Origin: Octopus vulgaris | Taxonomy: Eukaryota | Assembly: GCA_951406725.2 (NCBI GenBank) | Contig: OX597822.1 | Span: forward strand, 115,010,001-115,074,000 | Direction of reading: 5' to 3' | DNA length: 64,000 nt | Shown: positions 20,280 to 20,960 of the stretch, in pieces | Layout: each line of letters starts with the position of its first letter | How positions within the stretch are numbered: position 1 is the stretch's first letter | The notes under the pieces: generated by a model | What the model was told of the DNA's origin: nothing | Seen by the model: only the letters and a program-made list of their open reading frames with translations | Databases searched by the model: none | Position numbers and translations under genes: made by a program

Positions 20280-20960
20280 TTAGTCAATTGACTGCGACCA
20301 TGCTGGAGCAAGGCCTTCAGTCGAGCAAATCGACTCCAGGATTATTCTTTTAAGCCTAGTTATTATTCCATTGTGCACTTTTGCCGAACCGCTAATTTAC
20401 ACGGATGTAAACACACCAGCATCGGTTGTCAGCTATGTGGGGGGGGGGACAAACACAGACATGCATATACACACAAATACATCCATCTATATCTATGTCT
20501 ATCTATCTATCTATCAATCTATCTATCTATCTATCTATCTATCTATCTATCTATCTATCTATCTATCTATCTATCTATCTATATATATATATATATATAT
20601 ATATATATATATATATATATATATATATATATAGGGAAAGTTCACGAAAAAACAAAAGACGAAGACAGGTGGTGAACAAAACAAGCATATATATTAGTAT
20701 AACGCTCAGGAATTGAAAAAGTCTTTTACGTTTCGAGCCTACGCTCTTCTACAGAAAGGGACACGGAGAAAAAACAAGGAGAGAAACATATATACGACAG
20801 GCTTCTTTCAGTTTCCATCTACCAAACCCACTCACAAAGCTTCGGTCGGCCCGAGGCAATAGTAGAAGATACTTGCCCAAGGTGCCACGCAGGGGACTGA
20901 ACCCAACACCATGTGGTTAGTAAGCAAGCTATTTGCCACATAGCCACTCCTCACCGCCTA
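20280..20960 (-). mobile_element. SINE S1 with an H2 element inserted in its internal microsatellite
   Basis: 3' half 20280-20470 and 5' half 20791-20960, with microsatellite and H2 copy (20632-20790) between them. Confidence 0.8.
20723..20758 (-). ncRNA. minimal hammerhead-like motif with variant core CUGUAGA (H2)
   Basis: CTTT-CTGTAGA-A-GAGC-GTAG-GCTC-GAAA-CG-TA-AAAG. Confidence 0.55.

Follow-up and report, generated by a model that had tools for sequence, protein, structure and literature searches.

A hammerhead motif with uridine at position 6 in the terminal repeats of a Penelope-like retrotransposon of Octopus vulgaris

Introduction

Position 6 is a near-invariant catalytic position of hammerhead ribozymes. 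All single mutants of the CUGA stretch of a type III hammerhead had low activity, and the accessible part of that report describes no second-site rescue (PMC9901934). A natural change at this position is carried by the Bcep176 phage hammerhead, in which C replaces A6 while the rest of the core is intact (PMC3088659, PMC7151607). According to the accessible text of these two papers, A6C cleaves with a kobs under 0.1 per min (PMC3088659), and its activity is slow in Mg2+ and rescued by Mn2+ (PMC7151607).

Minimal hammerheads (min-HHRs) are also found in metazoan Penelope-like elements (PLEs), where, even with A6, cleavage is weak and takes place in dimers (Cervera and de la Pena 2014, PMC4209133). 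The hammerhead of an Anolis PLE is described as cutting only with the element's protein; the main insertion substrate is uncut RNA, and catalytic mutants still insert in vitro (PMC11167929). Naiad PLEs are reported, in the part of the preprint available, to spread without a detectable hammerhead (Craig et al. 2021). PLE hammerheads cut poorly in vitro, and one in vitro assay found them dispensable for insertion.

Here we describe a hammerhead lineage of Octopus vulgaris, initially recognized in a 64,000-nt stretch of DNA (the window), that resembles the metazoan PLE min-HHRs in its presence in both terminal repeats (pLTRs), a short stem I, an extra base after A9, the G10.1-C11.1 pair, a GAAA-CG-U-H palindrome without stem III, thousands of truncated single copies and a U-rich upstream flank (PMC4209133, as far as its accessible parts show). 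The 44 published alignment rows compared all have A6, the reported variant being U3-A8, whereas the lineage described here carries U6 throughout. It shares with the Bcep176 hammerhead a natural change at position 6 within an otherwise intact core; however, the phage change is to C, in a single assayed sequence on a canonical scaffold, whereas here it is to U, on a dimer-type scaffold, in at least about 24,000 copies known from sequence (PMC3088659 and PMC7151607, accessible parts). PLE hammerheads and one natural A6C are already known. Lunse et al. in 2017 reportedly covered about 150,000 PLE hammerheads, and those alignments could include U6 examples. We found no natural U6 hammerhead in the literature searched; the supplements of PMC4209133, PMC3088659 and PMC9901934 could likewise hold U6 sequences or A6U rates. 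The lineage combines a young intact element, a changed near-invariant catalytic position with other positions constant and an A6 sister family as a control within the same genome; it offers a natural test of what hammerheads do for Penelope-like elements.

Copies of the motif in the window

A preliminary description of the window had listed five stretches, all of which are present where it placed them; four have U6 (20723-20758, 9955-9990, 328-363 and 14497-14532) and one has A6 (14164-14198), as it had reported. It left the strand unstated, and 20723-20758, 328-363 and 14497-14532 lie on the minus strand. The consensus it proposed fits exactly only the copy at 20723-20758, the other copies being decayed.

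The motif at 20723-20758 (minus strand) is a minimal type I hammerhead motif that matches the min-HHR consensus in the supplement of PMC4209133, as far as that is accessible. Read as RNA from 20758 to 20723, it is CUUU CUGUAGA A GAGC GUAG GCUC GAAA CG U A AAAG, which comprises stem I (CUUU/AAAG), the core CUGUAGA with U6 at 20751, an extra A (9a), stem II (GAGC/GCUC) with a GUAG loop, GAAA, a palindromic ACGU and A17; the predicted cut site lies between 20727 and 20726. It is part of a 5′-truncated pLTR end of a Penelope-like element (20634-20786, minus strand; 93% to the majority sequence of subfamily S5), which continues for 93 nt beyond the predicted cut site and then gives way to (TA)n, from 20633 downward.

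The motif at 9955-9990, with U6, G7, U17 and one stem II mismatch, lies in a truncated pLTR copy of subfamily S4 (9928-10079, plus strand) that has a (TA)n tract on either side. A truncated S5 copy (14407-14570, minus strand) contains the decayed motif 14497-14532, with U3 and stem I mismatches, and an old, decayed copy (252-394, minus strand) contains the motif 328-363, which has U6 and C7, a broken stem II, G17 and has lost G12. The A6 motif (14164-14198), with stem I GUUU/AAAC, a 3-nt loop and the changes U4C and G16.2U, belongs to a copy of a sister family (14085-14290, plus strand). Two further plus-strand copies consist of the pLTR tail alone, one truncated near the 3′ end of the motif (24642-24731) and the other broken off within the motif and preceded by a (TA)n tract (63597-63684).

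Four motif matches with at most six substitutions were found in the window, versus none in each of 30 shuffles; together with the absence of the reversed pattern genome-wide, this indicates that the motif is not there by chance. In an Rfam scan with E up to 1, no hammerhead was among the best 150 of 207 matches.

Position 6 across the genome

The 2.8-Gb genome was searched with a 27-letter pattern in which positions 6 and 7 and the loop were left free. This gave 19,868 exact matches, against 0 for a reversed control, in agreement with the preliminary description of the motif as abundant. Position 6 was U in 18,928 of them (95.3%), A in 356 (1.8%) and C or G in 584 (2.9%). The genome-wide consensus is therefore U6; an A6 consensus would have counted against a family-wide non-canonical core. 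When stem II was also freed, 23,688 U6 and 7,887 A6 matches were obtained (controls 19 and 18), so that under this general pattern U6 outnumbers A6 three to one in this genome. C3, U4 and G5, G8 and A9, G12, A13 and A14, the A15.1-U16.1 pair and H17 of the hammerhead core are all present; as A6 alone is replaced, the motif is classed as a variant and not as a canonical member.

The A6 matches listed mostly represent the sister family (stem I GUUU/AAAY, 3-nt loop), which shares stem II and the 9a base with the U6 family. No open reading frame of this sister family was found within 1.5 kb upstream at 56 loci. From the A6 sister family and the published rows we infer that A6 is the ancestral state. 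The copies at 14085-14290 and 14407-14570 stand tail to tail with one microsatellite (14291-14406) between them, an arrangement of U6 and A6 ends across a TA microsatellite that suggests shared targets. Ends of the two families often lie close together (window 14085-14570; loci L173, L178, L179, L192 and L193). At L172 and L183, an A6-family copy is followed downstream, on the opposite strand, by a fragment of a distant Penelope-like reverse transcriptase (RT; ~30% identity).

The young element is contained in 20 sequencing runs under five organism codes. Contigs from these runs showed no other letter at position 6, yet they also missed the known N7 variation, so their uniformity says little. 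A metagenome scan gave one locus and was uninformative.

The host element

The hammerhead belongs to the terminal repeat of a Penelope-like retrotransposon, a host element that the preliminary description had not recognized. Copies in the window are 5′-truncated ends of this element lying in (TA)n. Common to the copies are ~50-90 nt upstream and ~90-105 nt downstream of the motif, followed by (TA)n; TATATA directly follows the 3′ end in 121 of 164 copies, and a few copies reach upstream into a region coding for a GIY-YIG endonuclease.

A search of the genome for the GIY-YIG domain gave 17,373 candidates, of which the best 150 were scored, nearly all of these at 99-100% identity. At 30 fetched loci, which were selected by endonuclease and not by motif, CTGTTGA was present in 31 of 31 motifs. 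Eight larger regions, selected for long open frames, were also fetched, and in seven of them two or three identical U6 motifs were spaced 4.4-4.6 kb apart. In six of the eight, a single open frame of 1,104-1,214 codons lies between the motifs or next to them; L094 adds a seventh, with a 1,024-codon unit open and a second unit frameshifted. Three motifs stand in tandem at L094, and L013/L014 show an inverted arrangement. Eight units of the element are 98.7-100% identical to one another, and the element is young and apparently still mobile. Subfamily S5, to which 20634-20786 belongs, is joined to the GIY-YIG coding region at L098-L100, L114 and L116.

The protein matches RVT_1 (Pfam, E 1.6e-7, above the cut-off) and GIY-YIG (Pfam, E 3e-4, just under the cut-off). 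A single frame thus encodes an RT followed by a GIY-YIG endonuclease (EN) at the C-terminal end, as in EN+ Penelope-like elements, and the partial tandem and inverted copies, 5′ truncation and microsatellite targets of that group are likewise found; the motif stands in both pLTRs flanking the RT-EN frame, as in elements with min-HHRs. Animal non-LTR retrozymes consist of short non-coding tandem units, every one bearing a hammerhead, unlike the protein-coding unit of 4.4-4.6 kb found here.

The protein contains DKG, YIDD, a CX4CxxC linker (residues 836-844) and two cysteines inside GIY-YIG. Craig et al. 2021 (bioRxiv 10.1101/2021.04.23.441226), in the part available, describe a CX2-5CxxC linker between RT and EN in Neptune that is shared with Nematis. 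The element resembles Neptune-type EN+ PLEs as described there in having one RT then GIY-YIG frame, DKG, the linker, the two GIY-YIG cysteines, partial tandems, inverted copies and (TA)n targets. The placement here is by motifs, and the linker is common also to Nematis; these sequence features point to Neptune or Nematis, and the TA preference would favour Neptune.

With Anolis PAc (Poseidon; PMC11167929, accessible parts) the element shares a pLTR hammerhead, inserts derived from RNA uncut at the motif and a lack of cut-site ends. The cleavage of PAc, in contrast, is demonstrated and protein-dependent, and its open frame starts inside the motif; in the element described here, ~750 nt separate the motif from the first in-frame ATG downstream. 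The frame of L089 (G000:C7:35722500-35730500) and the other full-length copies is also open up to ~130 codons before the first likely ATG; beyond the endonuclease it continues for ~100 codons across a pyrimidine tract of low complexity.

Subfamilies and constraint on the motif

On the basis of flank and N7, 133 of 195 collected copies were placed in eight subfamilies, with the remainder left unassigned, and the majority sequence of each subfamily was taken. Loci of the oldest group were found largely through upstream DNA, those of the next through the tail and those of the younger groups partly through protein, so most copies were gathered without selection on the motif. A tree of 206 copies built from the short ends was poorly supported and served as a guide only. 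Divergence of copies from their own majority falls from 11% to 0.7% along the series, and divergence from the youngest subfamily at fourfold-degenerate coding sites decreases stepwise (0.36, 0.25, 0.20, 0.13, 0.08), which confirms the order of the subfamilies.

Across the eight majorities the 36-nt motif changes only at N7 and position 17. N7 reads U, U, C, G, A, C, U, U (four changes) and thus varies as expected for this position, in line with the preliminary description; position 17 is A or U. These are the positions left free in the core consensus given in the accessible part of PMC3088659. With N7 and 17 set aside, 0 of 34 motif columns changed; in the gap-free part of the flanks, 62 of 132 columns did (Fisher P 1e-8), a comparison in which N7 helped define some subfamilies and the flank columns include pyrimidine runs that are hard to align. 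Given the fourfold-site divergence of 36%, the chance of 0/34 changes is ~2e-7, which argues that the hammerhead fold, with U6 in place, is under purifying selection. Loop II (GUAG) is invariant across the eight subfamilies too, as are short flank blocks. Flank columns changed 0.7 times on average, against the four changes at N7 (Poisson P 0.006), a partly circular comparison since N7 helped define groups; the excess could reflect tuning of the rate.

At position 6, U prevails in each of the eight subfamilies. The constancy of U6 taken alone is not significant, as a neutral site would stay unchanged with P ~0.6. In the oldest subfamily, U6 was counted by eye in 82 of 100 among the matches listed, with A6 in 8/100 versus G6 in 1/100. 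U6 is not decay, because ~99% identical full-length copies with open RT and GIY-YIG carry it at both ends. The two explanations offered in the preliminary description can be judged accordingly. As a statement about sequence, a natural A6U variant stands, given the U6 majority in eight subfamilies and the intact young elements; a weakened motif that still amplified fails in the sense of decay, in view of purifying selection, although the natural variant is probably also weakened. The two are not mutually exclusive, and U6 is probably both.

Several other readings of position 6 were considered and set aside. Alternative registers (UUGAAGA one step on, or a U inserted with N7 as A6) fit single subfamilies only. 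For a separate A6 or C6 sub-lineage within the oldest subfamily there were 6 copies with A and 7 with C, versus 42 with U; these had no convincing diagnostic flank letters in common and so look like post-insertion changes, although A6 exceeded G6 in the count above. At L339/L340, the real A6 core lies upstream, and these loci were not counted as U6. RNA editing as a rescue is ruled out, as A-to-I editing cannot make A from U. A second U6 family was likewise rejected: in the CTGTTGAGGTAGCGAACCAC-family repeat (L337-L363, L366-L388; 36 exact matches), CTGTTGA..GAAACGT lacks a stem I next to it and position 17 is mostly G. The CTGTTGA..GAAACGT segment lies directly 3′ of a GAAAC...CTGATGA motif of permuted order.

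Stems, palindrome and predicted folds

In 15 hand-picked, related motifs, 94% of stem cells were paired, and four of eight pairs change on both sides. Stems I and II are paired, with G10.1-C11.1 and a base between 9 and 10.1, as in min-HHRs. The two-sided changes all fall between families, the stems being invariant inside the U6 lineage. The covariation reported earlier for stem I is real between the U6 family and the A6 sister (C-G to G-C), but there is none inside the U6 lineage. Double stem II changes in the main family, counted by eye, were paired about as often as expected by chance, and folding z-scores of the motif were unremarkable.

The palindromic 15.2-16.2 (ACGU) through which min-HHRs can dimerize is present, and a dimer fold can be built at -9.9 to -10.9 kcal/mol; it is not the minimum-energy state. 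For natural U6 copies, the pairs U4.G16.2/G5-C15.2/U6-A15.1 are predicted with P 0.53-0.98 (five motifs), versus 0.00-0.10 in five natural A6 motifs. The predicted U6 helix, UGU with ACG, would hide the dimer palindrome; the energies are small. A competing fold of their own is also predicted for natural A6,C7 motifs, and a competing hairpin is therefore not unique to U6.

Search for traces of cleavage

Cleavage by the U6 motif is a prediction from its sequence, and we looked for its traces among insertion ends. There were 46 candidate copies with a 5′ end at the cut site, most of them bare tails lying in (TA)n. The cut site showed no surplus of 5′ ends, with 20 exact junctions there and 20 at a TA site in loop II that served as the control; in the youngest subfamily only, the counts were 20 versus 12 (P 0.22). 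The 46 ends were consequently rejected as a cleavage footprint, since the equal count at the control TA site indicates that microhomology explains them. The 5′ ends of the A6 family likewise gave no clear cut-site peak by eye among the matches listed. Typical copies keep the tail past the cut site, indicating templates uncut at the 3′ motif.

Function of the U6 hammerhead

We favour, with a probability of roughly 0.55, the reading that the pLTR hammerhead, with U6 through eight subfamilies, would be a slowed ribozyme that cuts only when two repeats pair, probably aided by the element's protein. What is observed is the location in both pLTRs of intact elements, the fixation of U6 and the constancy of the other motif positions. 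Transcription of a tandem unit would yield an RNA with two motifs 4.5 kb apart, whose ACGU palindromes and stem I strands would pair in trans to form two active sites. U6 would lower the rate through the loss of A6 contacts and the predicted competing hairpin. Most RNA would stay uncut and could be reverse transcribed from the RNA end ~100 nt downstream; the element's cycle would nevertheless still need a cut, be it small or late. Changes at position 6 are known to lower activity and need not abolish it (PMC3088659, PMC7151607, accessible parts), and that the motif varies at N7 and H17 and nowhere else agrees with the definition of the catalytic core (PMC3088659). On the other hand, a minimal scaffold with U6 may have practically no activity, given the low activity of CUGA mutants in the accessible part of PMC9901934; the cut site is not enriched in 5′ truncations, the invariant loop II and flank blocks go beyond what a plain ribozyme requires, and the U6 lineage lacks compensatory stem changes and a competing fold is also predicted for A6,C7 motifs.

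It is possible, if less probable, that the motif does not cut and that the hammerhead shape or dimer is a binding site for the RT-endonuclease or a pairing handle for template jumps or tandem formation. The missing excess of 5′ ends at the cut site, the retention of the tail past it and the invariance of loop II would all be expected of such a handle; catalytic mutants of the Anolis PLE insert in vitro and Naiad PLEs spread without a detectable hammerhead (accessible parts of the sources above), and A, one step from U, is never the majority in any subfamily. However, N7 changed four times and position 17 alternated between A and U only, whereas C3, U4, G5, G8, A9, G12, A13, A14 and A15.1-U16.1 all remained constant, the pattern expected if catalytic geometry matters.

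We propose only tentatively that A6U is an adaptive dimmer, in which a weak active site and an off hairpin would keep the RNA whole for reverse transcription until a cue (dimer, protein or Mn2+) triggers the cut; N7 and position 17 would tune the rate, and the attenuation would have contributed to U6 outgrowing its A6 sister.

Full competence of U6, with the GUAG loop, the 9a base, the flanks, the dimer partner or a metal ion replacing A6, is unlikely. The lineage is long-lived and successful, as its share of the matches attests, and Mn2+ restores A6C activity (PMC7151607, accessible part); against this, there is no accompanying core change, the A6 sister shares stem II and 9a, and the CUGA mutagenesis, in the accessible part of its report, found no second-site rescue (PMC9901934). 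That the ribozyme died in a master copy and is carried neutrally is highly improbable, for although U6 is harmful in model hammerheads (PMC9901934, accessible part) and old copies decay ordinarily, the unchanged motif columns largely refute it.

If the motif is active, the accepted hammerhead core widens, and searches that demand A6 miss large families, here with three times the canonical copies. If it is inactive, selection would act on the hammerhead shape for something besides cleavage.

Other repeats in the window

Another hammerhead family, which has the canonical core CUGAUGA, a 7-bp stem I and a long stem II, is present at 17886-17954 (plus strand), with an inverted twin near 1860-1928 (minus strand); the arms in which they lie (1797-2002 and 17812-18017) are 96% identical, in opposite orientation and 16 kb apart. 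Near 5661 (minus strand), GAAAC...GTT...CTGAAGA shows the hammerhead order permuted. A near-perfect inverted repeat of 120 nt at 14719-14842, with a weak MIR5070 match below the cut-off, is probably a small non-autonomous DNA element. Very long arrays of tetranucleotides (ACAT, CGTG, TACA) occupy 27578-35372 (7.8 kb) and 53675-55164 (1.5 kb).
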